Source: an uncultured archaeon (GTDB lineage: Archaea > Nanobdellota > Nanobdellia > Woesearchaeales > CAIVOO01). From it: a DNA stretch of 64,000 nucleotides. The stretch covers positions 1,558 to 65,557 of the forward strand of contig CAIVED010000027.1 in NCBI GenBank assembly GCA_903904885.1. The letters run 5' to 3'. The translations under genes were made by a program, and so were the position numbers. The stretch's first letter is position 1. The number at the start of each line of letters is the position of its first letter. Under the pieces are notes generated by a model that was given only the letters and a program-made list of their open reading frames with translations, was not told the DNA's origin and did no database searches. This document shows positions 20,432 to 47,152 of this stretch, piece by piece.

Positions 20432-20599
20432 ATGAACCTCAAAAAATGCCCCCAGTGCGGCTCTTTCAACCTTGTGCCCGAAATAGGCGGAGCAACAGGG
20501 CTGTGGAGATGCAAGAACTGCGGTTACGTTGGTTCATTCTTTGTTGAGCAGACGGTTGATGAAAAAATGTTAAAGAAAACTAAATTTGTAAAAAAATAA
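20432..20599 (+). CDS. Small zinc-ribbon protein
   Basis: CPQCGS...WRCKNCGY; TTTATAAA about 25 nt upstream of the ATG. Confidence 0.7.
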   Translation: MNLKKCPQCGSFNLVPEIGGATGLWRCKNCGYVGSFFVEQTVDEKMLKKTKFVKK

Positions 20600-20770
20600 T
20601 CCGTTTTCTGGGCAGTTCTTATTTTTGCTTCTTGCTTTTGATTGTTGCCTTGATTGCCAGGCCTGCGTTAACTTGCATTCTGCAAGTAACATCATATTCT
20701 TGCATGGCACTCGAGCAGAAGAAGCAGAAACAATATCCGGTTTAATGCAAGAACCAGAAAACTGGATTTT
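20599..20770. repeat. Dispersed structured repeat, copy A (no inserts)
   Basis: Aligns with 46926-47152 (same orientation), 43464-43754 (reverse) and 26924-26999; ends CCGTTTTCTGG...CCAGAAAACTGG. Confidence 0.85.
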
Positions 20771-20802
20771 GTAAGATTGAAAAATTAGGAAAAATGAAAA
20801 AT

Positions 20803-21351
20803 CTATTTGCACAATTCGCAATTATCCTCAAAGCACATGCACTCCGGCGCGTAGTACTCTTTTGCGTGATGGCACAGCGGGCATTTCTCCGGCGGCTCCT
20901 TTCCAACATGGATATAGCCGCATTTTGAGCATTTCCATGCTATTGGCTTGCTTCTCTTGTAGAGTGTCCCATTCTCAAGCATCTCGAGAAGTTTCTTGTA
21001 CCTTTTTTCATGATGGCTTTCAACTTCCCCTGTTTCCTTGAACAATGTTGCAGCAGCCTTGTTCCCTTCTTTCTCAGCATCAACCTGGAAATCAGGGTAC
21101 ATCTGCGATGTCTCGTAATGCTCCCCTTCAATTGCCGCCTTGAGGTTTGCCTTTGTATCGCCAATCCCCTTCAAAAGCTTGAATTCCTGTTCACCATGCT
21201 CAAACTCGTTGTCAGCGGTCTCAAGAAATATCCTTGCAATGTAATGGTAACCTTCCTTTATTGCAACATTTGCGAAAAAAGTGTACTTGTTCCTTGCCAT
21301 TGATTCGCCAGCAAAGGCTTTTTTAAGATTATCTTCTGTCTTACTAACCAT
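20803..21351 (-). CDS. rbr: Rubrerythrin
   Basis: AFAGESMARNKY, EFEH, GEHYE, ESHH, C-terminal CSKCGY..CPLC rubredoxin domain. Confidence 0.93.
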   Translation of the reverse strand: MVSKTEDNLKKAFAGESMARNKYTFFANVAIKEGYHYIARIFLETADNEFEHGEQEFKLLKGIGDTKANLKAAIEGEHYETSQMYPDFQVDAEKEGNKAAATLFKETGEVESHHEKRYKKLLEMLENGTLYKRSKPIAWKCSKCGYIHVGKEPPEKCPLCHHAKEYYAPECMCFEDNCELCK

Positions 21352-21395
21352 TTTATCCCCTTTAATTAAAAATAAAAAAAAAGTTTAAAAAAAAT

Positions 21396-23099
21396 TTAAC
21401 CGCATCCGCCTGTTGCTGGCGCTGTTGAAGCTGTGCTTGCGGCTGCTATTGTTGAACCGCATTCAGCAGGCTTGGTTGAATCGTAGGCAGAGCACATCGC
21501 GCCAAGGATTGAGTTTGCATCCCTTGCACCGCTGTATTCCTGGCCCTCGATGAATATTGTCGGCGAGCCCTGGACTCCAAGCAAATTGCCAAGATTCTGC
21601 TCCTTTGCGAGCAATGCCTCTGCTTCGCTGGCCTGGCAGTCCTTTATCTTCTGGGTGTCAAGCCCCAAATCCTTTGCAACCGCTTCCCAGCAGCTGTCGG
21701 CATTCTGCGCAGAGCATTTTGAGTTCATTGCAACTGCAAATGCGAACCATTTGTCAATTCCCATGTACTTGTTGACGCACAGTTCCCTCACATCCTGGCG
21801 AAGCTCCTGGCCTCCGTGCATTGAGCAGTATTTCTGCGTGCTGTCAAGGCAGGAATCCGCGCTTCCGTAGTTGGAGTAAATCACATAGTGCGGGTTGAAT
21901 ATCGCCTTGCTTCCAAGCTTGTCGTAAACCTGTTTGACTATTTCTTCTGCCTGGTTTCCGTAAGGGCAGTAGGCCATCACAAAGAAATCAACCTGAGGCT
22001 TGTTGTCTCCGAGAGTAACGCCTATGCTCTTGAGCATCTCAGCCTGCTTTTCGGCGCTGATGTAATGATTTGCTCCTGTAACCTCATCAAGCAGCCTGTA
22101 TTTTCCGTTTTCCGGCTCAAACAATGCGCTTACCTGGGCATTATTCTGCCATACATAGGCCTGTTCTGCATTCTTGTCAAATATGAATGCAGGAACAACA
22201 GTAAGATTGTACTGTGAAACCAGTGCCTTGCCTTCATCAGAGCTGATGTCAACATTGTTTACATCCAGGTTAAGGAAAACCTGTTTTAAGGAGTCAACAA
22301 TCTGCGAATCATCACACTGGGCGCATGTTTTGTCGTTAACAACAGTCATTGAAACCTTTGCGTCATCAGTGTATTCGCATTTTGCTGCATTTGTCCCTGC
22401 ATTTGCGCATTTCGGGATTTTCCCATTATTCTGCATGCAGTCAGCATCCGCAGTGCAGGCAGGAATATTGCTGCAGGCAGGGCTGTTCACGTTCTGGCAC
22501 ATTGCCCTTGTAAACGATGCCAGGTCTCTCTGGCCGCTGTAGTCCTTTCCGTTTATCTTGATTGTCGGGCTTCCCTGGGCTCCGGCAATGCCTGATGAGC
22601 TGAATGAAGCAGAAAGCAGCTGTTTTCCCTCTGCGCCTTCATAGCACTTTTTGATTGATGCCTTGTCAAGCTTTAGCTGGTCTGCGCACTGCTCCCAATT
22701 TGCTGGGATGCTTCCTGAATTCTGGTTCATGCACAGGATAAGGTCCATGTACTTTTTAGGCTCGTATTTTATTGCGCAAAGCTGGACAGTATCGCCATTT
22801 ACCTCATTAACGCCATGAAGCGAGTTGAAGCTTCCGTCAGAATTTGCAGTTCCTATGAAATTTAGATTGAAAACAACAGAATCCCCAAGATTCTTAAGCG
22901 CAGGGATGATTGCATCCTCTGCCTGAACTCCGTAAGGGCATTGGCTCATTACATACATGTCAACATTTACTGTGCCTGATTTTGGCGCCTGCATTTTTGC
23001 TGCAAACAGCCAGCCGGCCACAGCCACAACAACAACGATTATGGCCACAGCCCAATAAGCAGAATAATTTTTTTTAGTCTTATGTGTCTTTTTTTTCAT
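21396..23099 (-). CDS. Membrane-anchored double thioredoxin-fold (DsbA/GILT-like) protein
   Basis: N-terminal TM; two repeats of MxxCPYG...GSPT; many Cys. Confidence 0.75.
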   Translation of the reverse strand: MKKKTHKTKKNYSAYWAVAIIVVVVAVAGWLFAAKMQAPKSGTVNVDMYVMSQCPYGVQAEDAIIPALKNLGDSVVFNLNFIGTANSDGSFNSLHGVNEVNGDTVQLCAIKYEPKKYMDLILCMNQNSGSIPANWEQCADQLKLDKASIKKCYEGAEGKQLLSASFSSSGIAGAQGSPTIKINGKDYSGQRDLASFTRAMCQNVNSPACSNIPACTADADCMQNNGKIPKCANAGTNAAKCEYTDDAKVSMTVVNDKTCAQCDDSQIVDSLKQVFLNLDVNNVDISSDEGKALVSQYNLTVVPAFIFDKNAEQAYVWQNNAQVSALFEPENGKYRLLDEVTGANHYISAEKQAEMLKSIGVTLGDNKPQVDFFVMAYCPYGNQAEEIVKQVYDKLGSKAIFNPHYVIYSNYGSADSCLDSTQKYCSMHGGQELRQDVRELCVNKYMGIDKWFAFAVAMNSKCSAQNADSCWEAVAKDLGLDTQKIKDCQASEAEALLAKEQNLGNLLGVQGSPTIFIEGQEYSGARDANSILGAMCSAYDSTKPAECGSTIAAASTASTAPATGGCG

Positions 23100-23222
23100 T
23101 ATCTAAACCCCCTATTTTTTAAACTTCCTCAATAAGTTATATTTAAATTTTGCGAATTATGCACTGGTTTCCGGAGGTATATCCGACAGGTTTAAATATA
23201 ACCTGAAGGTGAATCTGGCGCC

Positions 23223-23891
23223 ATGAAAAGGCTGTTTTTGCTCGCAATCGCACTTCTTTTAGTTCCAATAGTACTCGCATCAACCCCAATGAACTGCTAC
23301 CAGAACTTCACTGCAATCAGATGCGGCGAGCAGGCAGAGTTTAACTCAGCACAGTACTGCGCAGGCATTAACCTGACAATAGAGGACTGCTACAATGAAG
23401 GGGGCAAGTTCACAGTCGTTTTTTCAGGAGTCAAATATTTTAAGGCCCCTGACCCCGTGTCAAGAATAACATTCTTTTTTTACTCAAGAAACTGGGCCTG
23501 GCTTGGGGACGAGACAGACATACCCCTGCCTGATAACAGCACAGTAGCCCAGGTCAGCGATAACAGGTTCATAGTTGTTTCGCCTCTTGGAAGCAAGAAG
23601 GTTGAATCTGTCCAGATAACTATTCCTTTCTGCTACAACCAGATGAACAGCGACCTTGAGAAAATTTACCTCAGAACCCAGGCAGGCAAGATTTGCAGGA
23701 TAGTAACGCCTGAAGAGGTTCCCAGCGAGCCTGCTGCCCAATCCAGCAACCCTTCTGCGCCAGTCGCAGCTCCTGCCACCCAAAGCAAAGCAGACAACGG
23801 CTGGATTCTCGGAGTTCTGCTAGTGGTTGTTGTGATTGTAGCTGTAGTCTTTATCCTGAGAAAGCCGAAGGCTAGGAAGAAGAAGAAATAA
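23223..23891 (+). CDS. Secreted protein with C-terminal membrane anchor
   Basis: Signal peptide, P/A/S linker, TM plus basic tail. Confidence 0.7.
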   Translation: MKRLFLLAIALLLVPIVLASTPMNCYQNFTAIRCGEQAEFNSAQYCAGINLTIEDCYNEGGKFTVVFSGVKYFKAPDPVSRITFFFYSRNWAWLGDETDIPLPDNSTVAQVSDNRFIVVSPLGSKKVESVQITIPFCYNQMNSDLEKIYLRTQAGKICRIVTPEEVPSEPAAQSSNPSAPVAAPATQSKADNGWILGVLLVVVVIVAVVFILRKPKARKKKK

Positions 23892-23940
23892 TTTTATTAT
23901 TCTGTATTGTTTAAGAAACTTTTTAAAATAGACAATCATT

Positions 23941-24219
23941 ATGCTGCCCATGAACTACAATCTTGAACTGGAAAGGGCAGCCAAAGAAATCAGGAAAGCC
24001 AGGGCAAAGAATGTTTGCATCCAGCTGCCTGACGGGCTGAAGCCAAAATCAGATGAGATGGCAAATTATCTTGAAAAAAATACGAGTTCAAAAGTTACCA
24101 TCTGGCTGGGGAGCTGCTTTGGGGCCTGCGACACGCCTTCTGGACTGGAGAATCTCAAAATTGATTTGCTCCTGCAATGGGGGCATAATGAGTTTCAGTG
24201 GAAGAGGCAGCGAAAATGA
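23941..24219 (+). CDS. Diphthamide synthesis Dph2 N-terminal domain only (split or short form)
   Basis: VCIQLPDGLKP, SCFGACD, LLLQWGH; only 92 aa. Confidence 0.8.
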   Translation: MLPMNYNLELERAAKEIRKARAKNVCIQLPDGLKPKSDEMANYLEKNTSSKVTIWLGSCFGACDTPSGLENLKIDLLLQWGHNEFQWKRQRK

Positions 24220-24351
24220 TAGAATCATTTTCTGGTCCTCCGTCGTCTTTTCAATTTGGCAACACCATAAAAGCCTCCGGAGGGCAGCGCAAATGACCGC
24301 GGTCATTTGCTGGTCTCTTTTCGCCAAAAGCTCAAAGAGGCAAAGTTCAGG

Positions 24352-24822
24352 ATGATTGACTACATCCTAGCCCTGGTTATTTCTTTCGCCGGCATAATTT
24401 TAGGAAGTATTCTCGCATTGATTGCCCCTGAAGAGCTGAAAGCCGGGAAAAAATGGTGGCAGCTTCTTGAATGGGCTGTTTTCATAGCAATAATCGCTGC
24501 AATGTTTTATTTTGCAAAAATAAACTTTCTCTGGACAGGCCTTATTGCGGCACTGCTCGCTCTCCTTAAAATCGCAAAAATGGACTATCCTGCGCTTGCG
24601 TTTGTGCTGCTGCTTTCGTTTGCAGACGGATTTTTGTTCCTGGCAGCTTCGCTGATTTTCATCTACGGGCTTCCGAAGGGAACGCTTGAAGCCATGCCAA
24701 TCGTTAATATGAGGAATTCCAAGAAATCAATCTTAAGGGTTTTGCTTGGCTGCGTTAAAAGAAACATCCTGTATCTTATTCTCGGCCTTGCTGTTCTACC
24801 ATTTCTGGCTGCTTATCTTTGA
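24352..24822 (+). CDS. Multi-pass membrane protein
   Basis: Hydrophobic segments, IAPEELKAGKKW; ATG 24352. Confidence 0.65.
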   Translation: MIDYILALVISFAGIILGSILALIAPEELKAGKKWWQLLEWAVFIAIIAAMFYFAKINFLWTGLIAALLALLKIAKMDYPALAFVLLLSFADGFLFLAASLIFIYGLPKGTLEAMPIVNMRNSKKSILRVLLGCVKRNILYLILGLAVLPFLAAYL

Positions 24823-25338
24823 GTAATATCCAATATGCTTGACTATCATGTGAAGCGGTATTGTCACAAGGCACAGATAGATCCATATCCATAATGAGGG
24901 AACATAGAAGAACGATGAAAAAACAAGGGCCCCGATAACCAGGTCAATCTGGTCGAATGGAATCCAGCTCTTTCCGGGGGCTATGGCAAACCTTCTCTTG
25001 AAAAAGCTCTTCACCAAATCGCCGAAGATTGCGCCGAACCCGAGCAATGCACCGAACCAGACCGGAAAAGAGCTGTAGTCTATAAGGCTCAGTTCCGTGA
25101 AAATATCAGCTTTGTAAAAAAACTGCTGCAGGTAAAAAATCAGCAGCCCGCCAAGTGTTGCGAAAAAAAGCCCTCGCCATGTCTTGTGGCTGCCGAAAAC
25201 CGGCTCACCGCCGAGCTTTTTCCTGAAATCCACAGGATAGGCAAGGAAATTTATCCTCTTGACAAGCACCGGCGCTATGTTTGCAAAATAGGCAGGGAGG
25301 ATGAAATACAATGCCTGAAGCAAAATCATATAGTCCAT
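24796..25338 (-). CDS. carS: CDP-archaeol synthase
   Basis: PAYFANIAP, GSHKTWRG, GDLVKSFFKRR, DQID. Confidence 0.9.
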   Translation of the reverse strand: MDYMILLQALYFILPAYFANIAPVLVKRINFLAYPVDFRKKLGGEPVFGSHKTWRGLFFATLGGLLIFYLQQFFYKADIFTELSLIDYSSFPVWFGALLGFGAIFGDLVKSFFKRRFAIAPGKSWIPFDQIDLVIGALVFSSFFYVPSLWIWIYLCLVTIPLHMIVKHIGYYSKISSQKW

Positions 25339-25736
25339 ATTAGCAATGCAACCCCTATTCCTATGGCAATCCCTGCCAGCACCTGAAGCGGTGTGTGGCC
25401 CTCAAAATACCTCAGCTTTTTCTTCAGCTTTTCATTCAGTGCAGTGGTTATTATCCCTATCTGCCTTCTTGATGTCATTGAATCATACATCACAATTATC
25501 GCAACAAAAAGGGCAAGCATGAAAAGGTTCGACACGCCTTCCAAAAGATAGATTGATGCTGCAACCGCAACTATTGTTGCAGTGTGGGAGCTTGGCATCT
25601 TGCCAGGCAGGAGAATCATCTTCAGATGGAAGTTTTTTGTCCTGATTCCGTCAATTATGAACTTCAAAAGCTGGGCAATGAACCAGGCAATTATTCCCGC
25701 GAGAAAGATTTTGTTGAGAAGGATATTCCAGAGCAT
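25326..25736 (-). CDS. Divergent PAP2-family (DUF212) membrane phosphatase
   Basis: GKMPSSHTA, VMYDS, GHTPLQVLAG. Confidence 0.85.
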   Translation of the reverse strand: MLWNILLNKIFLAGIIAWFIAQLLKFIIDGIRTKNFHLKMILLPGKMPSSHTATIVAVAASIYLLEGVSNLFMLALFVAIIVMYDSMTSRRQIGIITTALNEKLKKKLRYFEGHTPLQVLAGIAIGIGVALLIWTI

Positions 25737-25784
25737 TTGCCGTATTATTCCCAGACGGTTTAAAAACTTTTTCCCACAGAAACC

Positions 25785-25792
25785 TTTATAAA
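25785..25792 (+). promoter_or_regulatory. TATA box of tRNA-Asn
   Basis: TTTATAAA about 25 nt before the tRNA. Confidence 0.6.
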
Positions 25793-25816
25793 TGTGCTTC
25801 CTGAACGACCTTTTAC

Positions 25817-25945
25817 GCCCCCGTAGCTCAGCAGGTTCCTTGAGAGCCTAGCTTTCAGGGTTGCAAAGAGCGCATGGCTGTTAACCATGAGGTCACCAGA
25901 CAGAAAGATAATCTTTCTGGGTGAATTCGAGTCTGGTCGGGGGCG
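25817..25945 (+). tRNA. tRNA-Asn(GTT) with two non-canonical introns (D-loop 25837-25866; position 53/54 25900-25925)
   Basis: Acceptor GCCCCCG/CGGGGGC, anticodon arm CATGG-CTGTTAA-CCATG, T-arm ACCAG/CTGGT; both introns form bulge-helix-bulge motifs (GCAG/TTGC and CACC/GGTG central helices). Confidence 0.9.
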
Positions 25946-25947
25946 TA

Positions 25948-26718
25948 TTATTTTCTTAGTAAATTTTCTCGAATTGAAAGAGAAGTACCTGGAGGCACAA
26001 ACCCTTGTTTTTTCCAGAGAAAGTACTTTGTTAACTGGACAGGCGAATTAAATCCAATTTCAGACATCCATTTATTCAGTCTTGGAACACCATTAATCTG
26101 AATGTAATAATTTCTGTGAACCTTCCCCTTTCTTGTCTGAAATCTGGAATTTGAATAAAATTTAAATTTTAAATCTTCCAGTATTTTCTTTGTTGAATTA
26201 TGTAAAACTTCGTCAGAAGTTTGATAATCAATAACTGGGTAATAATTGATGTTTTTGTGCCTTGCCTTGAAAGCAAGGCTAAAATCAGCGTCAGCGAGAC
26301 CTCTCAGGAATGACCTTTTAATTTCAGGATTGCTTTTAAGAATTATGCTTGGAAACTCATAATTTGACTTTTTCCCTAAAGGCAATCCGCATTTTTCATG
26401 GAGAAATGAGAGTATTGTTTTTGAGTATATTGTTATATTAGCTGTTGTCTTTTTTGATAAAACTTTTACATTTTTATTAAACAGCTTTTTTATTAATGGA
26501 CATAAGAAGGATTTATACCATTTTAGCTCTTCAGAAAGATTTCCATCATATGAAATATAGTAATTAACCCCATTCCTCTTTTTATAAACACTCATCGATC
26601 CGTCTCCAAGATGAAACCCGAGCAGATAAGCTAATTCTAGATTTAGTGTTTCGGGCAGTTTTATTTTTTGTTTCAAGTCTAAATCACTAAAAGAGATATC
26701 TGAGGAGTCAAATTTCAT
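25948..26718 (-). CDS. Free-standing LAGLIDADG (DOD/intein-type) endonuclease
   Basis: LAYLLGFHLGDG and FLRGLADADF motifs; stop codon 2 bp from the tRNA-Asn 3' end; low GC. Confidence 0.85.
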   Translation of the reverse strand: MKFDSSDISFSDLDLKQKIKLPETLNLELAYLLGFHLGDGSMSVYKKRNGVNYYISYDGNLSEELKWYKSFLCPLIKKLFNKNVKVLSKKTTANITIYSKTILSFLHEKCGLPLGKKSNYEFPSIILKSNPEIKRSFLRGLADADFSLAFKARHKNINYYPVIDYQTSDEVLHNSTKKILEDLKFKFYSNSRFQTRKGKVHRNYYIQINGVPRLNKWMSEIGFNSPVQLTKYFLWKKQGFVPPGTSLSIRENLLRK

Positions 26719-26821
26719 AACTTGAATATAGACTGACCATTTAAATACTCATCGTCGAGGGATGTCCAGTGAACTTTTGAGGGAAAGGTTTATAAAACAT
26801 TTCTTTGTGCAGTTATTCATC

Positions 26822-26896
26822 GGGCCCGTAGCTTAGTTTGGCTGGAGCGTACGACTGATAATCGTAAGGTCCCGCGTTCAAATCGCGGCGGGCCCA
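26822..26896 (+). tRNA. tRNA-Ile(GAT), intron-less
   Basis: GGGCCCG/CGGGCCC acceptor, TACGA-CTGATAA-TCGTA, TTCAAAT T-loop; TTTATAAA at 26789. Confidence 0.95.
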
Positions 26897-26923
26897 TTTA
26901 ACGCTTTCAAAAGGTAATAATTG

Positions 26924-26999
26924 TTTCTTGCGTGGCAATATAGCAAAAGAAGTGAAAACAATATCAAGCTTAACGCAAGAACCAGAAACCGGGAATTTT
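26924..26999. repeat. Dispersed structured repeat, partial copy D (right half)
   Basis: TTCTTGCGTGGCA..AGCAAAAGAAG..AAACAATATC..TAACGCAAGAACCAGAAA matches the right half of copy A. Confidence 0.7.
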
Positions 27000-27038
27000 A
27001 TTAAAAAGCTTTAAAAAACCGCTGGGTAACTAATAATT

Positions 27039-27122
27039 CGGATGTGACCAAAAGCTGATGATTTAGATATCCCCGTCTGATTACAAATGAAGATGGAAAT
27101 CTTATGAAGCTGGTCAAAATCC
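27039..27122 (+). ncRNA. Candidate C/D box guide sRNA
   Basis: Box C TGATGA 27056, D' CTGA 27077, C' ATGAAGA 27087, D-like ATGA 27104, terminal stem TGACCA/TGGTCA, TTTAAAAA at 27010. Confidence 0.55.
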
Positions 27123-27138
27123 AAAGGTTAAAACGTAG

Positions 27139-28011: not shown

Positions 28012-28089
28012 TTATAAACATTTCTCTTGTTACCATTTAAAAATAGAAAATACAGAAAACTATATAAAAAACCCTGATTGCAGTGAAAT

Positions 28090-28713
28090 ATGGACGACAA
28101 AACATTTGCTAATTTTCTGAAAATATTGGTATTATACAAGCTTAAACAGATTCCGAGAAATTCATCAAATCAGTATCATGATGAAAAAGAGGGCGTTTTT
28201 TATCGGAGAAGAGAAACAGATGCAGAGCATGTTTATTCTAGTTTAAGGCTTGCGGATTTTTTTCTCACGTCTGAAACTGAATTTGCAGATTTAAGCAGGC
28301 TAAGAGTATACGAACTGATTATGTACCATGAGGATGTTGAAATCATCGCCAGAGATACAGGAATTTCTGAAATAGAAAAAAGAAAAAATAAGGAAAAAAA
28401 AGAACGAGAAGCTTTGAAGATATTGCATCCAAGATATCCTGCTCATTTAGATGACAAACTTATTCTTTTGGATGCTGAATACAGGGAAAGACATACTGAA
28501 GAATCCAAATTTGCAAAGGGAATCGACAAACTGGATGCGTTGGTGCATGAGCTTCAATATCCCACAGATTGGGGCCCGAAAGGATTTGATGAAAAAAATG
28601 TCAGGGCATGGTTCCAGCCGGCTTTTGAATATTCCCCGACATTTATGGCATATTTTGAAAAAATTATTGAGCATTTGAATCAGAATGGGTATTTCAATAC
28701 AAACAGAGAATAG
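28090..28713 (+). CDS. HD-domain hydrolase (YfbR/HDDC2-like)
   Basis: LKQIPR, RETDAEH, YHE (degenerate HD), ESKFAKGIDKLD. Confidence 0.75.
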   Translation: MDDKTFANFLKILVLYKLKQIPRNSSNQYHDEKEGVFYRRRETDAEHVYSSLRLADFFLTSETEFADLSRLRVYELIMYHEDVEIIARDTGISEIEKRKNKEKKEREALKILHPRYPAHLDDKLILLDAEYRERHTEESKFAKGIDKLDALVHELQYPTDWGPKGFDEKNVRAWFQPAFEYSPTFMAYFEKIIEHLNQNGYFNTNRE

Positions 28714-32002: not shown

Positions 32003-32120
32003 GCCCCTGTAGTATAGCTTGGATAGAATACGGGCTTGCGGTAGCGGCGAACAATGTTCGCCTGAGTTTACAGCTCACTGCAAACAGCCTGTGACCCGGG
32101 TTCGAATCCCGGCGGGGGCG
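32003..32120 (+). tRNA. tRNA-Arg(GCG) with canonical 37/38 intron (32042-32085)
   Basis: GCCCCTG/CGGGGGC acceptor, CGGGC-TTGCGG|A-GCCTG, CCGGG-TTCGAAT-CCCGG; BHB helix TTGC/GCAA. Confidence 0.9.
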
Positions 32121-38714: not shown

Positions 38715-40481
38715 CTACCTCTTTTTCTGCTCATTGAAATATTCCTCAACCATCTGCAATGTGCTAACCTCTTCCGGCGAGCGATCGTCCCTCAGCCGCC
38801 TGACCCTCGGGAACCTAAGCGCGTAGCCTGAATTGTATGTGGGTGATTTCTGTATTTCCTCATAGGTCACCTCAACAACAATCTCCGGCTTTATTTTCAC
38901 TTCCTTGCCTTTCTCAGAGATTACATGCTTTTTAAGCATTTGCGTCAATTGCTCAAATGAAACGCCCTCCTCCTCTTTTTCTTTTATCCCTGTTCCAACC
39001 TTGCCGACTTCCATGTATTCCCCGGAATCCTCATCAAGGCAGGCAAGAGTGAAGCTTGAAAGCCAGCCGGCCCTTTTCCCTGAGCCCCATTCCCCTCCGA
39101 CAATGACCAAATCCAGTTCTTTCATTGTGGGCTTTAGCTTTATCATGAATCCAACTCTTGAGCCGGGCTTGTAGGGTGCTTTCAGGTTTTTCATCATGAC
39201 ACCTTCATTGCCAGCATTCAAAGACTGCCGGTAGAATTTCTCTGCATCGGTTTTGCTTTCAGTTATGATTTGCTCTGCCAAAACAATGGCCCATTTTTTC
39301 GGCTTTACGATTTTCTCAATCAGCTTCCTTCTTTCCTCAAAAGGGGTTTTAATTGTGGTTTTGTTATTGTAATAAAGAATGTCAAAAACATTAAGCTCAA
39401 CAGGAAACTCTTTTGCCGTCTTTTCGATGTCATATTTTCTTTTTATTCTCTGGGAAACATCCTGGAACGGCCGGTATTTTTTTGTTTTCGGGTTGTAGCC
39501 AACAGCCTCGGAATCAAGAATGAATGATGCATTCTGGGTGTTTTCTTTTATTGCCTCGACAACATCAGGGAACTGGTGCGTGACATTTTCCAGCCTTCTT
39601 GTGTAAAGCATTATTTTGTCCCTATTCCTGTGAACCTGGATTCTGAAACCGTCATATTTGTATTCTATTGCTGCAGGTGTTTCGACACGCTCAAAACCCT
39701 CATTGAAATCCGCAACTTTCTGGGCGAGCATAACCTTGACAGGCCTCCCCACCTCAAACTCGATTTCAGCCAGTCCCTTTTCTCCTGATTTTTTCGCCGC
39801 CTTTGCAACAATGGAGAAATCATTGGCAACATCATAGGCATTCTGCACAATCTCCAGAAAATGATTGTACCTGTCCCGGTTTTTCTCAGGAAATGCCACA
39901 TTGTTCAGCTTTTTGTCATAGTCCAGCCCGATTTCCTTTCCAAAAACAGACCACACAATTGCATCCCTTATCGTTCCCTCGCCAAGGCCAACCCTCAAAT
40001 CCTCAAGAACAGTCCTTATTATGTACCTTGCCTCATTTGGCTTTGCGCTTGTCAGCAATTCGGCAACAAGCTTGACTTTCACGTCAACACTGCCCAGGCC
40101 CTCGATTGTTGCAAGCTTCCTGATATTTTCAAAAACCTTTGAGACGGTCAATTCAGATGAGAATAAAGTTCTTTGGTGCTTTTTTCCAATGAGATCCTCT
40201 GCTGTTGCGCCCAAATCCCCTGTTTTCTTCAGGCTCTTTTCTATCAAATCTTTCGAGAGGCCTGTTGCGGTTTCAAGGGCCTTAAGCACCATCTTGGAAG
40301 CAAAACCGATTTTTCTCTCATCCCAGGGAGGAAAAACCTTCCCCCCGGCAAGAAGAACAACCTTGTCAATGTCGTCCGCAGGGACCTCCTTCAGAAACTC
40401 GGATAAAATATGTGTTTTTTCCAAACGCTTTGTCGTATTGTCCAGCTGTTCATACAGCTCTGCCAGTTTGGAGTATTTCAT
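38715..40481 (-). CDS. lig: ATP-dependent DNA ligase
   Basis: EYKYDGFR, EGVMMK, KLK, ALRFPR. Confidence 0.97.
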   Translation of the reverse strand: MKYSKLAELYEQLDNTTKRLEKTHILSEFLKEVPADDIDKVVLLAGGKVFPPWDERKIGFASKMVLKALETATGLSKDLIEKSLKKTGDLGATAEDLIGKKHQRTLFSSELTVSKVFENIRKLATIEGLGSVDVKVKLVAELLTSAKPNEARYIIRTVLEDLRVGLGEGTIRDAIVWSVFGKEIGLDYDKKLNNVAFPEKNRDRYNHFLEIVQNAYDVANDFSIVAKAAKKSGEKGLAEIEFEVGRPVKVMLAQKVADFNEGFERVETPAAIEYKYDGFRIQVHRNRDKIMLYTRRLENVTHQFPDVVEAIKENTQNASFILDSEAVGYNPKTKKYRPFQDVSQRIKRKYDIEKTAKEFPVELNVFDILYYNNKTTIKTPFEERRKLIEKIVKPKKWAIVLAEQIITESKTDAEKFYRQSLNAGNEGVMMKNLKAPYKPGSRVGFMIKLKPTMKELDLVIVGGEWGSGKRAGWLSSFTLACLDEDSGEYMEVGKVGTGIKEKEEEGVSFEQLTQMLKKHVISEKGKEVKIKPEIVVEVTYEEIQKSPTYNSGYALRFPRVRRLRDDRSPEEVSTLQMVEEYFNEQKKR

Positions 40482-40514
40482 TGGCTTAAAAAAGGAGTTT
40501 TCGTTTAAAAAGGT

Positions 40515-42674
40515 TTATTTTTTGCGTGAGGATTTTGAAAGTTTGACATCCCGCTTGGCGTCCTTGAGCATTTTTTTTATTGCAGCAATATGCGAAAGTG
40601 AATGCAAGTCAGTGCTTACTATATCCTTCAAGGTAGCTTCATTTTTCGCGTACCTTTCCAGTGTTTGCTTGAGACTTACTAAGAAATATTTGAATTGCTC
40701 TGCCTGAGTGGCATAGATTTTTCTCCGTCTAAATGACACGTCCTCAGATTCAGGCTCATCAGCAAATAAACCCGGCTGGCTGGTATTTGCCCCAAGACGG
40801 TCTATAAACGCGCTTATATCCTGCCTTATTTCACTTTGTGTTGTTTTGCCTCTGATAACCGCATCATATGCTATCTCCAGCTGTTCGTCAAAAGTAAGTT
40901 TCCTTCTCTCAACTCCTCCTCTTCCTTCAACCGGGACAGTTAAATTTTCATTTGCAAACAGCATGGCCGCAGAATAGCTAAGAAGGCCTTCCCCGACTAA
41001 AGTTTTTACCTCTGGTGCAACCAGTTTAGCAAAACTTAAAACATCCAGACCGGTCCTTCTGCTGATTTTGAGCATTTTAACAACATCATTCAGTCCTTCT
41101 GCTCCGGCAAGTTCATAAACTTCAATCAAAGCATTTCCCCTCTCTTCTGCAGTAAATGGTTCCTGGGTATTTTCATCATTCTGCAGCCAGGACCTTAATT
41201 CCCTGCTGAGATTTTGGATTTCGATTACCCGCACGGTATCCACTCCTGCGTGCTTGCAGGCCTCATATCTTCTGTGACCACAAATAAGTTTGTATTCCTT
41301 TCGTCCTATTTTTTCTACCAGGAGCGCATTGAACAGTCCGGCCATCTTAATAGATTCACCCAAAGATTCTACTTCATTATCCGCAACAGGGCCTCTTGGA
41401 TTTTCAGGGTCAGGGGTAATGTATTCCAATTTCACAACTTTAATTTTTCTGGTTGCTTTTCTTTGAACAGTCGGCCGATCTCTTGACTCAATTTCTCTCA
41501 GTTTTTTAGCAATGGTCACATGGCATATTGAACCACCATTGGCTGCAGTTCCATTAGTGAGCGCGTCCAGGTACTCTGTATGCTTCGCAACGGCAGTTTC
41601 AAGCATACTGAGGCTTTTTAGGCAGGAGTCTACTTTTTCCTCAAGCGAACCCTGCACATTTGCCTTGTAATCATCATCAATCCTGCTGAGTTTCCAGGTT
41701 CTGGAAATATAATCTCTTGCCATTCCCAGACTCTCCCTGACCTCGAGAATGTTTTGTTTTCTGCAGGCTGCTCTGCGCTCTGCCTGGCTTTGCCTGTTAA
41801 TCTGCGCCAGGTCTGTTTCGTCTTCAACCTCAGGAATATTCTCCAAATCCCGCCTCCTTTTTTGCTGGGCAATTATGCGCTTTGCCATAGCGGATAATTC
41901 CTTTGGAACAGACGCCTGGCGTGAGGCCTTCAAAATATCCCTATAAATTATTTCTTTAAATTTTTCAAAAGGGGTATTTGCATATTTCAGGGCAAGCTCA
42001 TGCTGTTCTGTCTTGCCTGGAATCCAGGATAACAAAACTGCCCTTTCATAGCTCAGACCTTCCTCTGCAACTATTTTCTTTACTCTATATGCACAGTTAT
42101 ACACATATCTGTATGCGTCCCGGATAGCTCTTTCAGGCACACTGGCATATTTGCTGAATTCTTTTACAGTAAAAGGCGGCTTGCTCTGGTATTCTCTTGC
42201 CTTATTTTCATCGTTCATCAGTCTTACAATTTCCTCTGCCCTCCTGAAAGGAGGCGGAGCAACCTGGCTGTCCTCCTGGATTTGGATTATCCTCCTCTCA
42301 AGAATTGGCAAAGGTATTTTGGAATTCCTGACATCTATTTCTATGTCTGCAAATCCTGCTTCCTTTGCTGCAAGAAGTCTTCTATGGCCATAAATCAGAA
42401 AAAGAATATCATCATCATCTGAAACACCTTTAAGAACAGTATTTTTATCCTCTTCCTTGACGTCATGCCTCCCGAGAATATATTCCCGGTATACCCTGCC
42501 TTTAACCCATTCAGCCAGGGGGTATGATATCTGCCCGTGACTCGCCATGGATTTAGAAAGCTGCGTTAATTTGTCCTCTTTAACCGTTTTTCTCGGCTGG
42601 CCAAGGTCAGGCTTAACAGTCTCTAAAGACGCGACAAATCTCGTTGAAGTTAAATCAATTCTGGCAACATCCAT
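40515..42674 (-). CDS. Protein with two tandem ParB/Srx domains
   Basis: QPRK..SMASHGQ..LIYGHRRLLAA and NPRG..SIKMAGL..LICGHRRYEAC, each followed by a helical/HTH region. Confidence 0.8.
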   Translation of the reverse strand: MDVARIDLTSTRFVASLETVKPDLGQPRKTVKEDKLTQLSKSMASHGQISYPLAEWVKGRVYREYILGRHDVKEEDKNTVLKGVSDDDDILFLIYGHRRLLAAKEAGFADIEIDVRNSKIPLPILERRIIQIQEDSQVAPPPFRRAEEIVRLMNDENKAREYQSKPPFTVKEFSKYASVPERAIRDAYRYVYNCAYRVKKIVAEEGLSYERAVLLSWIPGKTEQHELALKYANTPFEKFKEIIYRDILKASRQASVPKELSAMAKRIIAQQKRRRDLENIPEVEDETDLAQINRQSQAERRAACRKQNILEVRESLGMARDYISRTWKLSRIDDDYKANVQGSLEEKVDSCLKSLSMLETAVAKHTEYLDALTNGTAANGGSICHVTIAKKLREIESRDRPTVQRKATRKIKVVKLEYITPDPENPRGPVADNEVESLGESIKMAGLFNALLVEKIGRKEYKLICGHRRYEACKHAGVDTVRVIEIQNLSRELRSWLQNDENTQEPFTAEERGNALIEVYELAGAEGLNDVVKMLKISRRTGLDVLSFAKLVAPEVKTLVGEGLLSYSAAMLFANENLTVPVEGRGGVERRKLTFDEQLEIAYDAVIRGKTTQSEIRQDISAFIDRLGANTSQPGLFADEPESEDVSFRRRKIYATQAEQFKYFLVSLKQTLERYAKNEATLKDIVSTDLHSLSHIAAIKKMLKDAKRDVKLSKSSRKK

Positions 42675-42776
42675 CCAACATCCCCCAATAGTAGCAAACT
42701 AGATTGAAGCAGTTTATAACGATTATTGTTCTTTAAAATAGATAATTTTAAATAGAGATTTTTGTTTAAAAACCAA

Positions 42777-43448
42777 ATGGATGTCGAAGAATGCATCAAA
42801 ACGAGGAGGGCCATAAGGAAGTTTCTTGATATTGATTTGCCAAAAGACAAGATTGTTGCAATTCTTGAGGCGGGGAGGATGGCACCGACTGCAGGCAATC
42901 TCCAGAATCATGAAGTAATTGTTGTTACAGACAAGGCATTGAGAAGGGCGGTTGCAGAGGCGTGCCTGCAGCAGTACTGGATTGCCCATGCGCCTGTTAT
43001 CCTGGTTGTTGTCGCAGAGCACGAGGTGCAGAAAATGCACTACGGAAAAAGAGGGGAAACGTATTCAATACAAAGCGCCGCAAACGTGGCAATGAACATG
43101 ATTCTGCAGGCCCATGCGCTCGGCGTTTCCAGCTGCTGGGTGGGCGCATTTGACGAGGAAATGATGAGGCGTTCGCTTGGAATCCCCGGAAAGGTAACTC
43201 CCCTGACAGTGATTCCGCTAGGATATGCGGATGAACAGGTTCCAATTCCGCCGAGAAAATCCTTCTATTCAACAATCTGGCTTGAGCAGTACGGCAACCA
43301 GATAAGGGATGTAAATCTTGCGCTGGGGGAATACGGCGCATTCCTGCAGGGAAAAATAAATAAGGCAAAGGCAGGGACAGAAGAGCAGGTCAGCAGGATT
43401 GTGAGGCATCTGGCCAAGATAATTCCCAAGAAGAAGCCTAAGAAGTAA
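42777..43448 (+). CDS. Nitroreductase family protein
   Basis: TRRAIRKF, APTAGNLQ, LGVSSCWVG, PLGY. Confidence 0.9.
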   Translation: MDVEECIKTRRAIRKFLDIDLPKDKIVAILEAGRMAPTAGNLQNHEVIVVTDKALRRAVAEACLQQYWIAHAPVILVVVAEHEVQKMHYGKRGETYSIQSAANVAMNMILQAHALGVSSCWVGAFDEEMMRRSLGIPGKVTPLTVIPLGYADEQVPIPPRKSFYSTIWLEQYGNQIRDVNLALGEYGAFLQGKINKAKAGTEEQVSRIVRHLAKIIPKKKPKK

Positions 43449-43463
43449 CATCTCTCCTGAAAC

Positions 43464-43754
43464 AAAATTCCGTTTTCTGGTTCTTGCATTACCCTCCAGG
43501 TTTATTCTGCTTCTTTTGCTCGAGTGCCATGCAAGAATAAAACGCAAGAAAATGCTACGCATTTTCTGCGCGCAGAAAATCCCTCTGGGATTTTCTTGCG
43601 TATTAACTGCCGAAGGCAGTTTAAATGCAGGCCTGGCAATCCAGAACAACAGCAAAAGCAAGAAGCTAGTTTAAGCGCAAGAGAAGCATAGCTTCTCTGC
43701 GCGCAGAAAATGCCATAGCATTTTCTTGCGGCCTGCCCAGCAAACGGGATTTTT
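43464..43754. repeat. Dispersed structured repeat, copy B (reverse orientation; twin-hairpin inserts at 43543-43600 and 43676-43730)
   Basis: Reverse complement aligns to copy A outside the inserts; 43676-43730 is the exact reverse complement of 46948-47002. Confidence 0.9.
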
Positions 43755-43774
43755 ATAGCGGAAAATCATGTAAA

Positions 43775-43810
43775 GAAAAAAAAAGAATTCTCCATGCCCC
43801 GGAGGGCATG
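43775..43810 (-). terminator. Hairpin plus T-run downstream of ftsZ
   Basis: CATGCCC-TCCG-GGGCATG followed shortly by a 9-T run on the minus strand. Confidence 0.4.
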
Positions 43811-43993
43811 AAGACCCTTACTGCCTTCATCTCTTAATTTGTTGGGGGTGGTTAAAAAACGAAGGCAAGAAAACGCACCGTGAACCGGTGAGCGTAAAGA
43901 TAATGCCGACTTCATCGGCATTATCAGACTTGCAAATCCAGAGATTTGCAAGTGATTTCTTGCACAAATATCATTAAACCACAAGGTAATTGC

Positions 43994-45070
43994 TTACCTT
44001 ATGATTTCTATCCCAAGCTCCCTGCTTACCTGTACTTGCTTTGTGGACGGCTTGCTGTAGTCCTGCTTTCCAAGTATCCAAGGCGACTGGACTCCTGTTA
44101 TGATTGTCATAACGGTTATCCTGCCCTTCATATCATCCTGGACTCTTGCGCCCCAGATGACATTTGCGTCCTCATCCATTGTCTCGGTTACCAATTCGCC
44201 AATCCTGTTAATGTCGTCAAGCGTCATGTCAGGACCGCCGTTAACCTGGATGATTGCACCTGTTGCTCCTGTGTATGTTATGTCAAGCAATGGGTTTGCC
44301 AATGCTCCTCTTACCGCCTCTTCTACCCGGTTAGTTGTGTCCGAGCTTCCTACTCCAATTGCCGCAACTCCTCCGTTGCTCATGATTGCCTTGACATCTG
44401 CGTAGTCAAGGTTAACCAATGATGGTATTGCAATTGTTTCGACAATTCCTTTGATCATTGTTGAAATCAGTTCGTTTGCAACTGCGAATGCCTGGGTAAC
44501 CGGAAGGTTACCTGCAATCTGGACAAGCCTGTTGTTGTCAATCACAATTACTGTGTCTGACACCTGCCTAAGCTGCTGCAATCCGAATTCTGCCTTGTCA
44601 ATTCTTGCCCTTTCAATCTTGAAAGGCATTGTGACTGTTCCTATGACGATTGCGCCAACATCCTTTGAAAGCTGGGCAATTACAGGAGCTGCTCCTGTTC
44701 CTGTTCCGCCGCCCATACCGGCGCATACGAATACCATGTCAGCGTCCTTAAGTGTTTCCTTAAGCTGCTGAAGTGATTCCTTTGCTGCCTCGGATCCTTT
44801 TTCAGGGAATCCTCCGCATCCAAGACCCTTAGTTACATTTCTTCCCAAAAGAAACTTTCGGTCTGACTCTGTTATCTGCAAGTGCTGCTGGTCTGTGTTA
44901 ACTGCGATGACCTCAGCTCCCTTGACACCTTTCTTGTAGAGCCAGTTAACCATGTTATTACCTGCTCCGCCAACGCCAATAACCTTAATATTAGCCTGGC
45001 CGATGTCAACTCCTTCGAATTGTGTTGTTTGTTCCTGCGCCCTTAAAGCGTTTTGCACCAAAAAGTCCAT
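43994..45070 (-). CDS. ftsZ: Cell division protein FtsZ (FtsZ2-like N-terminus)
   Basis: GVGGAGNN, GMGGGTGTG, NLDYAD; ATG 45070 with GGAGG SD. Confidence 0.97.
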   Translation of the reverse strand: MDFLVQNALRAQEQTTQFEGVDIGQANIKVIGVGGAGNNMVNWLYKKGVKGAEVIAVNTDQQHLQITESDRKFLLGRNVTKGLGCGGFPEKGSEAAKESLQQLKETLKDADMVFVCAGMGGGTGTGAAPVIAQLSKDVGAIVIGTVTMPFKIERARIDKAEFGLQQLRQVSDTVIVIDNNRLVQIAGNLPVTQAFAVANELISTMIKGIVETIAIPSLVNLDYADVKAIMSNGGVAAIGVGSSDTTNRVEEAVRGALANPLLDITYTGATGAIIQVNGGPDMTLDDINRIGELVTETMDEDANVIWGARVQDDMKGRITVMTIITGVQSPWILGKQDYSKPSTKQVQVSRELGIEIIR

Positions 45071-45191
45071 TTTAGTCCTCCCCCAGTTTTGCTCTCTTTT
45101 GGGAAATTGATTTTTTTGTTTTATCGGGATAGCGTGAACTAACGAAAGCTTTATATAGTAGTTCATACTATACTCTATTCCAGAAACAGTT

Positions 45192-45266
45192 ATTTCGTCG
45201 CCAAAACGAAATCGATTTGGTTTAAGTCGCCAAACTTAAACTCGTTGTGTTTCGCCAAAAACACAA
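45192..45266. repeat. Three tandem hairpins sharing the loop CGCCAA
   Basis: ATTTCGT-cgccaaa-ACGAAAT; GTTTAAGT-cgccaa-ACTTAAAC; TTGTGTTT-cgccaa-AAACACAA. Confidence 0.8.
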
Positions 45267-45443
45267 TTTTAATTTTTCTATATATTATATATCTTATATT
45301 TAAACACTTCTGTGAATGAATGTATATTTTGCAGTATACAGATGTGTATACTGGGAGATGAAATACATTCTTTACTGGAGAGTGGTTTTAATAACAAATT
45401 CAATAGAGAAAGTTTTATTACTGAATGAAAACCTCTCAGAAAA

Positions 45444-46157
45444 ATGAAAAACAAGGAATTCTTTTATCTGCAGTATAATAAAATAAACTGGCAGAATCAG
45501 GAGAAGACGAAGATAAATGCTTTGGTGAATAATCATATCATTCAAAATATCATTCTAAAGAACAAGCGCCAAAGTATTAAGATATTTGACATTGGTTTCG
45601 GCATAGGTTTTTTTATGAAAATGCTATCTGAAGCTTTAACCCGATCTTACAATGAGATTACTCTGGCAGGGTGTGAACCTTCCAAAAAGAATTACGATTA
45701 TTTCATTGAGAGAAATTCGCTGAAAAAATTGGAAACATACAACAAAACATTTCAGGAAATAAAAACCAGCAAAAAATTTGATTTCATTACCGCAATTTAC
45801 GTGTTCCCTCATTTCACTTTGGAAGATTTGGATAGTATTGCAAAAAAAATCAATTCTATGCTTGAAACTGCGGGGAAATTTATTCTAGTCGTTGCCAATG
45901 AAAAATATCTAAAGGGAAAGCTAAGAGACAAAAGAGACCTGTTTATAGAAAAAAATACATTTCGGTGGAACGGGAAAGAATATTGGGAGGTCCTGCATTA
46001 TTCGGATATACCTGAGATAGGCAAGGTCATAGACTATAATAGGGAAGAATCTTTTTATATTGACTTGTTTGAAAAGTATAATTTTAGGCTGGCAGAGAGA
46101 AAGAATTTAGACGACAAGGGTTTTATCTGCACAGTATTTGTATTCGAGAAAAAATAA
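45444..46157 (+). CDS. Class I SAM-dependent methyltransferase
   Basis: IFDIGFGIG, GCEPS, FDFITAIYVFPH. Confidence 0.8.
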   Translation: MKNKEFFYLQYNKINWQNQEKTKINALVNNHIIQNIILKNKRQSIKIFDIGFGIGFFMKMLSEALTRSYNEITLAGCEPSKKNYDYFIERNSLKKLETYNKTFQEIKTSKKFDFITAIYVFPHFTLEDLDSIAKKINSMLETAGKFILVVANEKYLKGKLRDKRDLFIEKNTFRWNGKEYWEVLHYSDIPEIGKVIDYNREESFYIDLFEKYNFRLAERKNLDDKGFICTVFVFEKK

Positions 46158-46163
46158 AAGAAA

Positions 46164-46913
46164 ATGCTATCCATAATCGGCATCGGACTGAACGACGAAA
46201 AGGACATAACCCTGAAAGGATTGGAGTTAATCAAGCAATCTGATTTTGTCTACTTGGAAAGCTACACATCAATCCTGCAGTGCGATGTTTCTGCTCTTGA
46301 GAAATTATATGGAAAGAAAATTATTTTGGCAGACAGGACTCTTGTCGAGCAGAAAGCAGAGGAAACGATTCTCAAGAATGCAAAAACAAAAAATGTTTCA
46401 TTTCTGGTTATCGGTGATGCGCTTTCTGCAACAACACACACTGATTTGCTGAAGAGAGCAAAGGATTTGGGAATCAAAGTCAACATTGTCCATAACGCTT
46501 CCATTTTGACAGCTGTCGCTGAAACAGGCCTGCAGCTGTACAAATTCGGCAAGACAACAAGCATGCCGTTTCCTGAGAAGAATTTCCAGCCGGAAACGGC
46601 CTATGAGGTAATTAAAGATAATTTATCATCAGGTCTGCACACTTTGGTGTTGCTAGATCTCCGCCCGCAGGAAAACAAGTTTATGACAGTAAACCAGGCA
46701 ATTAATATCTTATTGGAGATACAGGAAAAAAGAAAGGAAAAAACAATAACTAAAATTATTGGCTGCGCACGTCTTGGAAGTGAAAAACCAACAATCAAAT
46801 TTGGCACAGCAAAAGAACTGAAAGACTTCAACTTCGGCAAGCCGCCCCACTGCTTAATAATCCCGGGAAAAATGCATTTTGCTGAAGAGGAATTTGTTGG
46901 GCAATTCAAATAA
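46164..46913 (+). CDS. dph5: Diphthine synthase
   Basis: IGIGL..EKDITLKG, ESYTS, GDALSATTH, GLQLYKFG, HTLVLLD. Confidence 0.95.
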   Translation: MLSIIGIGLNDEKDITLKGLELIKQSDFVYLESYTSILQCDVSALEKLYGKKIILADRTLVEQKAEETILKNAKTKNVSFLVIGDALSATTHTDLLKRAKDLGIKVNIVHNASILTAVAETGLQLYKFGKTTSMPFPEKNFQPETAYEVIKDNLSSGLHTLVLLDLRPQENKFMTVNQAINILLEIQEKRKEKTITKIIGCARLGSEKPTIKFGTAKELKDFNFGKPPHCLIIPGKMHFAEEEFVGQFK

Positions 46914-46925
46914 ATGTTTCAAACA

Positions 46926-47152
46926 AAAACCTTTTTTCTGGGCAGACCGCAAGAAAATGCTATGGCATTTTCTGCGCGCAGAGAAGCTATGCTTCTCTTG
47001 CGCTTAAACTAGCTTCTTGCTTTTGCTGTCTGCCCCGATTGCCCAGCCTGCCATAAATTGCTTTCAGCAATTAATATCATTTCCTGCATGGCAGTTGAGC
47101 AGAAGAAGCCAAAACAACATCAAATGTAATGCAAGAACCAGAAATCGGTTTT
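46926..47152. repeat. Dispersed structured repeat, copy C (one twin-hairpin insert, 46948-47002)
   Basis: Colinear with copy A; about 80 bp identical to copy B in inverted orientation. Confidence 0.9.

Follow-up and report, generated by a model that had tools for sequence, protein, structure and literature searches.

Two nested families of non-coding, hairpin-forming DNA repeats, probably mobile, in the small genome of an uncultured Woesearchaeales archaeon

The stretch of DNA analysed here (the window, 64,000 nucleotides) comprises positions 1558-65557 of contig C27 from G000, a genome of an uncultured archaeon of the order Woesearchaeales that amounts to 1.31 Mb in 44 contigs, with a GC content of about 42%, a marker completeness of 98.7% and a contamination of 2.2%; the stretch is also present in four freshwater-sediment metagenome DNA runs and in no listed RNA run. 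The order, which looks like a group of the DPANN type, includes at least 136 families, and its listed genomes are nearly all between 0.6 and 2.1 Mb in size, with two larger ones (maximum 2.7 Mb). In the window lie four copies, A to D, of a non-coding imperfect palindrome of 170-185 bp, here called the main element, and two of them are interrupted by a second, 55-57 bp repeat, the mini-element. The copies, the paired arms of copy A (a terminal stem and helices P2, P3 and P4, taken from the helix columns of the alignment described below) and the insertions are as follows.

20599..20770, plus strand: copy A, main element, full length, no insertions (best nhmmer match; covariance-model score 172.6 bits)
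20601-20611 / 20754-20765, plus strand: terminal arms of copy A
20612-20619 / 20659-20666, plus strand: P2 of copy A, mismatched in this copy (GCAGTTCT vs AGGCCTGC)
20671-20677, loop TTC at 20678-20680, 20681-20687, plus strand: P3 of copy A
20697-20705 / 20745-20753, plus strand: P4 of copy A
26924..26999, plus strand: copy B, right half only (the P4 module), 80% to copy A
43464..43754, minus strand: copy C, main element with two mini-element insertions (repeat comparison, covariance model)
43543..43600 (C27:45100-45157), no strand assigned: mini-element doublet in copy C, between P3 and P4, at the site GTTAATA^TTTTATT in element orientation
43677..43730 (C27:45234-45287), no strand assigned: mini-element doublet in copy C, in the 5' arm of P2, at GCAGGC^CTTAA
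46926..47152, plus strand: copy D, main element with one mini-element insertion (repeat comparison, covariance model)
46948..47001 (C27:48505-48558), no strand assigned: mini-element doublet in copy D, in the 5' arm of P2, at a position identical to that of the copy C insertion

Copies A, C and D each lie between the convergent ends of two open reading frames (ORFs), which by Pfam are a Zn-ribbon ORF and rubrerythrin for copy A, nitroreductase and FtsZ for copy C, and TP_methylase and a 190-aa ORF for copy D, and copy B starts 28 nt past a tRNA-Ile gene (26822-26896). An earlier note on this DNA (the original prediction) had placed the four copies at these coordinates and on these strands, with B as a partial copy and A, C and D between convergent ORF ends; the imperfect inverted termini that it described, TTTTCTGG...CCAGAAA, are present, and its apical hairpin with three different stems and a common TTC loop was found exactly so. 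The variant second stem TCTTGCG/CGCAAGA, which it assigned to copy D, does exist, but in copy B, as a compensated P4 variant (TTCTTGCG / CGCAAGAA); in copy D, TTCCTGCA stands opposite TGCAAGAA, which is a mismatch. Overlooked at that stage was that the insertions in C and D are a separate, nested mini-element resembling the REPINs of bacteria (REPIN, a doublet of inverted repetitive extragenic palindromic, or REP, units): the two copies owe their extra length to the 55-57 bp repeat, inserted twice in C and once in D. The left 127 nt of copy D are 90% complementary to the matching part of copy C, and the site between P3 and P4 that is occupied in copy C is also occupied in another copy (C12:87441).

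Further copies were collected by iterated nhmmer searches seeded with copy A, in which the number of matches rose from 82 to 111 and to 153. Since the element is a long imperfect palindrome, many places are matched on both strands, and the 153 matches reduce to 81 non-overlapping segments and these to 76 sites, which cover 13,291 bases or 1.0% of the genome. The sites include 49 flagged as full length (a count that takes in copy B, whose alignment was stretched across the tRNA), 11 consisting of the right half only and 4 of the left half only; the right half is also the better conserved one, with a mean column identity of 0.82 as compared with 0.75 for the left half. The termini, ...CCGTTTTCTGG / CCAG(A/C)AAACGG..., are inverted repeats reaching about 20 nt past CCAG, and it is about 20 nt past CCAG that similarity between copies fades in the end profiles. 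Being short, non-coding and multi-copy, and having terminal inverted repeats, the element shares the basic features of MITEs (transposable elements of miniature size with inverted repeats). At no fixed offset did a duplication of 5 bp or more rise above permuted controls, and duplications of 2-4 bp are not assessable in flanks that are A/T-rich and partly conserved. The only internal ORF, 13 codons in the right half (ATGGCA...TAA), was considered as a coding sequence and rejected, as by eye it displays no third-position pattern and carries 1-nt indels in 2 of 40 copies.

The structure of the main element was analysed in an alignment of 40 of the 49 full copies, the nine dropped being L005, L009, L017, L027, L029, L037, L042 and L049, all with large insertions, and L041, which is copy B. 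Three helices were predicted by RNAalifold, and the terminal stem and a crossing pairing were added by hand before pairs were counted. P2 (GCAGGCCT / AGGCCTGC), an 8-bp stem closing a 41-nt loop, is 94.1% paired and shows double changes in five of its eight pairs, with 9, 13 and 15 double-changed cells in the central three; the apical hairpin P3 is 89.7% paired, with double changes in all seven of its pairs. Among the 40 copies the P3 stem core takes 23 different forms and P2 comes in 10 variants, and the P3 loop is TTC in 19 of them and TTC with an insert of 8-13 nt in another 15, most of these inserts containing CTGCGC. P4 (TTCTTGCAT / ATGCAAGAA), a 9-bp stem closing a conserved 41-nt loop, is 96.4% paired and nearly invariant, hence uninformative with respect to covariation within the genome. 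The covariation score for the whole structure is 0.190 as opposed to 0.113 in shuffled alignments, none of 500 of which scored as high, and controls in which the helix partners were slid against each other gave at most 0.082. The covariation from which the original prediction had concluded that the structure is under selection thus held in a far larger set of copies, with P2 and P3 well above both kinds of control.

A tree built from the non-stem columns is star-like, with none of 37 inner branches well supported and a median end branch of 0.18, and the stem states are scattered over it like shuffled labels (24 changes vs 23.9, and 33 vs 31.4), so the covariation does not stem from a handful of inherited changes. 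When ten copies of two further species were aligned to the model, which biases the alignment toward the structure, pairing was 91.5% in P2, 84.5% in P3 and 98.9% in P4; P2 and P3 covary in these as well, and in 3 of the 10 one U-A pair of P4 has become C-G. The terminal stem, in comparison, is 67.9% paired over 17 positions and covaries weakly, and the crossing pairing GCTTCTT/AAGAAGC, put forward in the original prediction as a pseudoknot, is complementary and 77.0% paired in the 40 copies, yet has only 2, 4 and 1 double-changed cells. Both are mere palindromic similarity. According to the structure model, each strand of the main element can fold into a four-helix cloverleaf that consists of a weak terminal stem, P2, P3, which retains the TTC loop on a stem of nearly unconstrained sequence, and P4.

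The mini-element, found at 28 loci in G000, is built as a doublet from two 27-nt hairpin units that are inverted relative to each other. Its units take the form C-N-CAAGAAAA-apex-TTTTCTG-N'-G or that of the reverse complement, C-N-CAGAAAA-apex-TTTTCTTG-N'-G, and forward and reverse units always lie side by side. A strict pattern finds 45 units in the genome (22 + 23) and none in a shuffled genome. In all 45 of them N and N' of the foot form a complementary pair, G-C, A-T or C-G, and every unit has an apex stem of 3-5 bp (mean 3.84, against 0.63 when shuffled); the apexes are of 39 different kinds, and the 45 apex stems together contain one G-T pair. Each unit has a conserved, bulged foot and an apex that is free in sequence and always complementary, and this covariation supports two separate hairpins over an alternative outer stem.

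The mini-element lies within main-element sites at 18 of the 28 loci by an automatic test and at six of the other ten on inspection. Comparison with the uninterrupted main element allows the insertions to be read to the base: removal of the doublet restores the main-element consensus with zero duplicated bases. The insertion points are TTCTTG^CATGG in the 5' arm of P4 (used in four copies, whose apex pairs all differ); AACTTG^CC, AACTG^CA and GTTG^CA in P3; GTAATA^TTTT (in two copies); GGCACTC^ (in four copies, of which three are alike); GCAGGC^CTTAA (in C and D); and ATT^TTCTG within another unit (two cases). Copies L032 and L047 read TTCTTG-CG-CATGG at the P4 5'-arm site, the form that a deletion between the 8-nt direct repeats made by an insertion would be expected to leave.

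Of 401 genomes of the order, 8 contain the doublet pattern, and they are spread over eight families, with 39 matches in G000 (both strands counted), 18 in G058 and 2-4 in the other carriers, and a reversed control pattern gave none in any genome. The mini-element is absent from G001, a congener of G000 that carries the main element. Together with its patchy presence in the order, this absence indicates that the two elements have had separate histories.

Three places in G000 (C3:17557-17762, C37:13956-14222 and C11:13971-14262) hold mosaic arrays of three to four hairpin units nested one within another in main-element copies, an arrangement reminiscent of the bacterial interspersed mosaic elements (BIMEs). 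On contig C63 of G017 (L127, about 1498-1555), a doublet lies in frame and without a stop codon inside a putative ORF of 111 aa (1412-1747); palindromic elements inserted within coding genes are known from Rickettsia. On contig C26 of G286 (L136), a doublet is contained in each of two inverted copies, 97% complementary, of a different 159-nt repeat (994-1152 and 4513-4671). The 3.36-kb segment between them was considered as a transposon and rejected, as it contains genes for a nucleotidyltransferase, a class II aminoacyl-tRNA synthetase and an OB-fold protein.

The distribution of the main element points to mobility, as had been proposed. A covariance model built from the trimmed alignment (R1) matched at least 66 sequences in G000, a figure that is a ceiling, as at most 66 candidates were scored per genome, and 17 in the congener; it had no match in 39 other genomes, 5 of the same family and 34 of other families of the order. 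The positions in G001 that are syntenic to copies A, C and D hold no element, and the spacer behind the counterpart of the tRNA-Ile gene contains a full copy in the orientation opposite to that of copy B. The empty sites are too diverged from G000 for the boundaries to be placed to the base, and they establish insertion polymorphism between related genomes, as is usual for MITEs. At the syntenic G001 place of copy A, the rubrerythrin gene (20803-21351) is absent together with the element, and the neighbours are 86 nt apart.

An exact-pattern scan of 185,579 species genomes returned the G001 record and five bacterial matches, none of which fits the model and whose number is about that estimated for chance. 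A similar scan of metagenomes found true copies on five contigs of one sample, which belong to a third species, its flanking genes being 77-85% identical to those of G000. One of its copies occupies the same gene-element junction as G000:C6:3867-4037, with the conserved blocks intact and the loop diverged, so that at least one insertion is older than the split between G000 and the third species. Neither element had a match in viral contigs, and BLAST searches of plasmids and phages gave none. Contigs from the metagenome runs showed no empty-site allele over the window, at a depth of only 2-5; their joints, such as a 63-nt skip at 43537-43601, resemble cross-matches from other copies.

Both elements would need an enzyme acting in trans. 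As the original prediction stated, the window has no transposase, and of five Pfam families searched for genome-wide, PF01797 (Y1, including the REP-associated tyrosine transposases, RAYT), PF07282 (TnpB), PF01548 (IS110) and PF13358 (IS630-type DDE_3) are absent. The fifth, DDE_Tnp_1 (PF01609, of the IS4/5 type), is represented by two genes, 69% identical to each other, without element-like ends or element-like sequence nearby; their protein was not found in the element-carrying G001 and was found in six genomes without the element. This candidate thus fits the element neither in its ends nor in its distribution. Among the doublet carriers searched, all but G239, PF01797 is absent from G000, G017, G058, G155 and G310, and it is also absent from G001, which has the main element only; it is present in G107 and G286, flanked by unrelated hairpins. 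Pattern scans of genome, metagenome and viral collections found no autonomous element with main-element ends.

The genes beside the elements were scanned with equal lack of success: 14 ORFs in the window, 20 sandwiched between elements and 7 beside the G058 doublets encode housekeeping or unassigned proteins and no transposase, and no copy adjoining a transposase or TnpB, as the original prediction had envisaged, was found among them. The proteins found in these scans include FtsZ, ATP-dependent DNA ligase, eIF-1A, RFC and CDC48, which, with the two tRNA matches of intron-containing length mentioned below, mark the organism as an archaeon. Five ORFs had no family at first; at E<=0.01, those of 158 and 408 aa still had none, and those of 214, 285 and 699 aa had weak, sub-threshold matches.

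The elements are placed unevenly with respect to genes. They occupy 29 convergent, 37 tandem and 5 divergent spacers, whereas the abundance of the three types in the genome predicts 14.0, 43.2 and 13.8 (p=1.3e-5, with crude ORF calls, namely the longest ORFs of at least 90 aa), and the remaining 5 sites comprise four within small doubtful ORFs and one at a contig end. The elements therefore sit behind genes, at their 3' ends, and avoid promoter regions. A region of about 3 kb without an ORF of at least 90 aa (G000:C1:21624-24673) has a main-element copy at each border and could be an rRNA or other RNA locus.

The observations to be accounted for are the copy number, the paired and covarying structure, the precision with which the mini-element inserts, the uneven presence in different species, the preference for gene 3' ends and the absence of the usual transposases. 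We consider it probable (roughly 60%) that the main element and the mini-element are non-autonomous mobile DNA of a MITE- or REPIN-like nature, two families of non-coding repeats, one nested in the other, whose folded, hairpin-bearing form is the target of selection. A trans-acting enzyme would copy both of them as DNA, recognising the folded state, either single-stranded hairpins or extruded cruciforms, along with a small set of fixed motifs (GCAAG/CTTGC, GCAG/CTGC and the P4 module). The stems would be maintained if copies without these features neither remained mobile nor were retained.

Several observations weigh against this interpretation. No mobilising enzyme was found by searching five Pfam families genome-wide and the genes beside about 20 sites, a search that does not distinguish an enzyme that went unrecognised from one that has been lost from the genome. 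The ends of the main element and any target duplication remain imprecise, with no fixed duplication of 5 bp or more. The star-like tree has long end branches, yet 21 columns of the alignment are invariant, and in the copy that G000 and the third species have in common the conserved blocks are intact and the loop has diverged. Constraint by a host function on resident copies fits at least as well as a pure filter of selfish transposition.

Such a function could be exerted by RNA. The main-element copies might be structured RNAs or cis-acting transcript elements that serve the host, such as 3'-UTR (untranslated region) stabilisers, terminators or small regulatory RNAs, with selection locus by locus. 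The strong bias toward gene 3' ends and the avoidance of divergent, promoter-containing spacers agree with this, as do the persistence of conserved blocks and paired stems despite the long end branches, the intact blocks of the one copy common to related species, and short T-runs at both outer ends, although these are just 4 long. On the other hand, most sites examined differ between the congeners, and no Rfam family matched, either at the gathering score across the window, a search that the original prediction had suggested, or at E<=1 on 18 copies, where a single chance snoRNA match (E=0.12) appeared.

A helix that is selected in one RNA strand is expected to tolerate G-U and not A-C. The cells of P2 and P3 taken together comprise 535 Watson-Crick pairs, 11 G-T and 18 A-C, unlike typical RNA helices, and there is no bias of orientation toward the upstream gene, the element running in the same direction as the gene in 15 tandem contexts and in the opposite direction in 22 (p=0.32). 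Both strands of copy A fold about equally (z -2.5 and -3.1). Because G-T is no commoner than A-C and orientation ignores gene direction, the sequence data favour selection that would act on DNA folding, or on both strands, rather than on a single functional RNA strand, and we regard the RNA explanation as unlikely.

Strict Watson-Crick pairing on both strands and a near two-fold symmetry would equally suit cruciform or protein-binding sites that were once mobile and are now mostly fixed, domesticated for chromosome organisation or DNA topology. Roles of this kind have been proposed for bacterial BIME/REP clusters. The invariant P4 module has the appearance of a sequence-specific binding site, there are mosaic clusters of units inside elements, and the 76 sites are spread roughly evenly over 1.31 Mb. 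We know of no protein that binds the elements. The main element is confined to one genus among the genomes searched and is hence no general archaeal feature; its sites are occupied differently in the congeners; and the mini-element occurs patchily in eight families of the order, as an element that spreads would. Taken together, these points make domestication quite improbable.

Very improbable indeed is the guide-RNA-scaffold relic considered in the original prediction, or a transposon-end relic, with candidate sources in a TnpB/IscB right-end RNA, an IS110 bridge RNA or a palindrome-associated element (PATE) of IS200/IS605 origin: the size of about 175 nt, the two stems each enclosing a large loop, the better conserved right half and the excess of lone right halves over lone left ones (11 vs 4) would be in keeping with it, but the 98.7%-complete genome has no TnpB, Y1 or IS110 gene and G001 no Y1 gene, no such gene adjoins the copies among the neighbours examined, no Rfam family matches, and the loops are conserved whereas guide segments would vary.

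The interpretation as nested mobile DNA repeats can be given a more specific form, which we consider unlikely as it stands: the repeats may be an archaeal counterpart of REPINs without a RAYT, hairpin or cruciform repeats copied by a structure-specific enzyme of a class not yet recognised as a transposase, perhaps a host junction- or hairpin-processing nuclease or recombinase. Such an enzyme would cut TG^CA-like sites beside the GCAAG/CTTGC foot and insert without target duplication, and the cloverleaf element would be both a second substrate and a preferred landing pad.

REP and REPIN elements with a RAYT transposase were reportedly described in bacteria by Bertels and Rainey in 2011. The mini-element resembles them in that two short units, each an imperfect palindrome, form an inverted doublet that is extragenic and occurs in tens of copies, and also in its conserved hairpin foot, variable remainder and mosaic clusters. 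It differs in its archaeal host, in the location of the variable part, which is the apex of the unit and not the spacer between units, and in the lack of a repeat-flanked Y1/RAYT gene, the Y1 genes of G107 and G286 being flanked by unrelated hairpins. Its units start with C-N-C-A-(A)-G, not with the GTAG/CGTC tags that are named in PMC3733652. A passage of 10.1101/2021.07.10.451892 states that REPINs were not detected in archaea, and our search of the literature on archaeal REP-like elements with compensatory hairpins found nothing closer.

The main element is MITE-like, being short, non-coding, intergenic and multi-copy, with imperfect terminal inverted repeats and presence/absence differences between relatives. 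It is unlike MITEs in that a cognate insertion sequence (IS) with matching ends was not found, in that its internal helices undergo compensatory evolution, which a transposase binding double-stranded ends does not require, and in that it is itself the preferred target of a second element. A census of archaeal MITEs (PMC11602168) gives high densities in DPANN genomes, with 105 per Mb in one Woesearchaea genome; it reports densities, not structures, and its supplementary sequence files might contain these very repeats.

The resemblance extends to other repeats of bacteria and to single-strand transposition. The enterobacterial repetitive intergenic consensus (ERIC, or intergenic repeat unit, IRU) and the Correia elements (Neisseria miniature insertion sequences, NEMIS) are intergenic imperfect palindromes of 100-160 bp, often in transcribed regions and without a known transposase of their own. 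They have size variants that stem from internal insertions at fixed sites, and the compensatory changes reported for ERIC have been read as RNA-level selection; Correia elements duplicate TA. The main element has in common with them the palindrome, the intergenic place, the size variants due to internal insertion and the compensatory changes, and differs in its unrelated sequence and hosts, in that G-U is not favoured and in that a TA duplication is not demonstrable. By mechanistic analogy, hairpins with a conserved foot, the lack of target duplication and insertion beside a short end-like sequence (target ...CTTG^, as compared with the element end ...CTTG-CG) bring IS200/IS605 elements to mind. 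These repeats differ from IS200/IS605 in that there is no TnpA or TnpB and in the two-fold symmetry of the element, which lacks a left end distinct from the right one.

Some other features of the window were recorded in passing. The tRNA-Ile gene (GAT, 26822-26896) has no intron in G000, and its G001 counterpart (L075, 850-950) appears to contain an insertion after the anticodon region that is probably an intron. Just upstream of this gene and copy B, on the minus strand, a 256-aa ORF (25948-26718) with a LAGLIDADG_3 match (E=3.4e-6) could be a free-standing gene of the homing-endonuclease type. Two tRNA matches at 32003-32120 and 50095-50210, neither of which was reported by ARAGORN, measure 116-118 nt against an Rfam model of 71 positions and presumably contain introns. 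Direct 119-nt copies with 94% identity, 805 nt apart (55287-55405 and 56092-56210), are unrelated to both elements. On the minus strand, a 719-aa ORF (40515-42674) has a ParB N-terminal domain as its sole Pfam match, and a 567-aa ORF (21396-23099) has a GILT domain together with DsbA/thioredoxin domains.

Two interacting repeat families whose helices are maintained by compensating changes thus make up about 1% of this very small archaeal genome, and the smaller of them inserts precisely and without target duplication, although among the families searched no transposase that would account for it is present. If the mobilising activity were found, archaea would have a mechanism of DNA movement that is new, possibly with an enzyme, also new, that inserts DNA under the guidance of structure; the elements would offer lineage-specific markers for strain typing and a source of intergenic rearrangement in reduced genomes, and the roughly 70 diverged copies would constitute a natural data set on the evolution of DNA hairpins.

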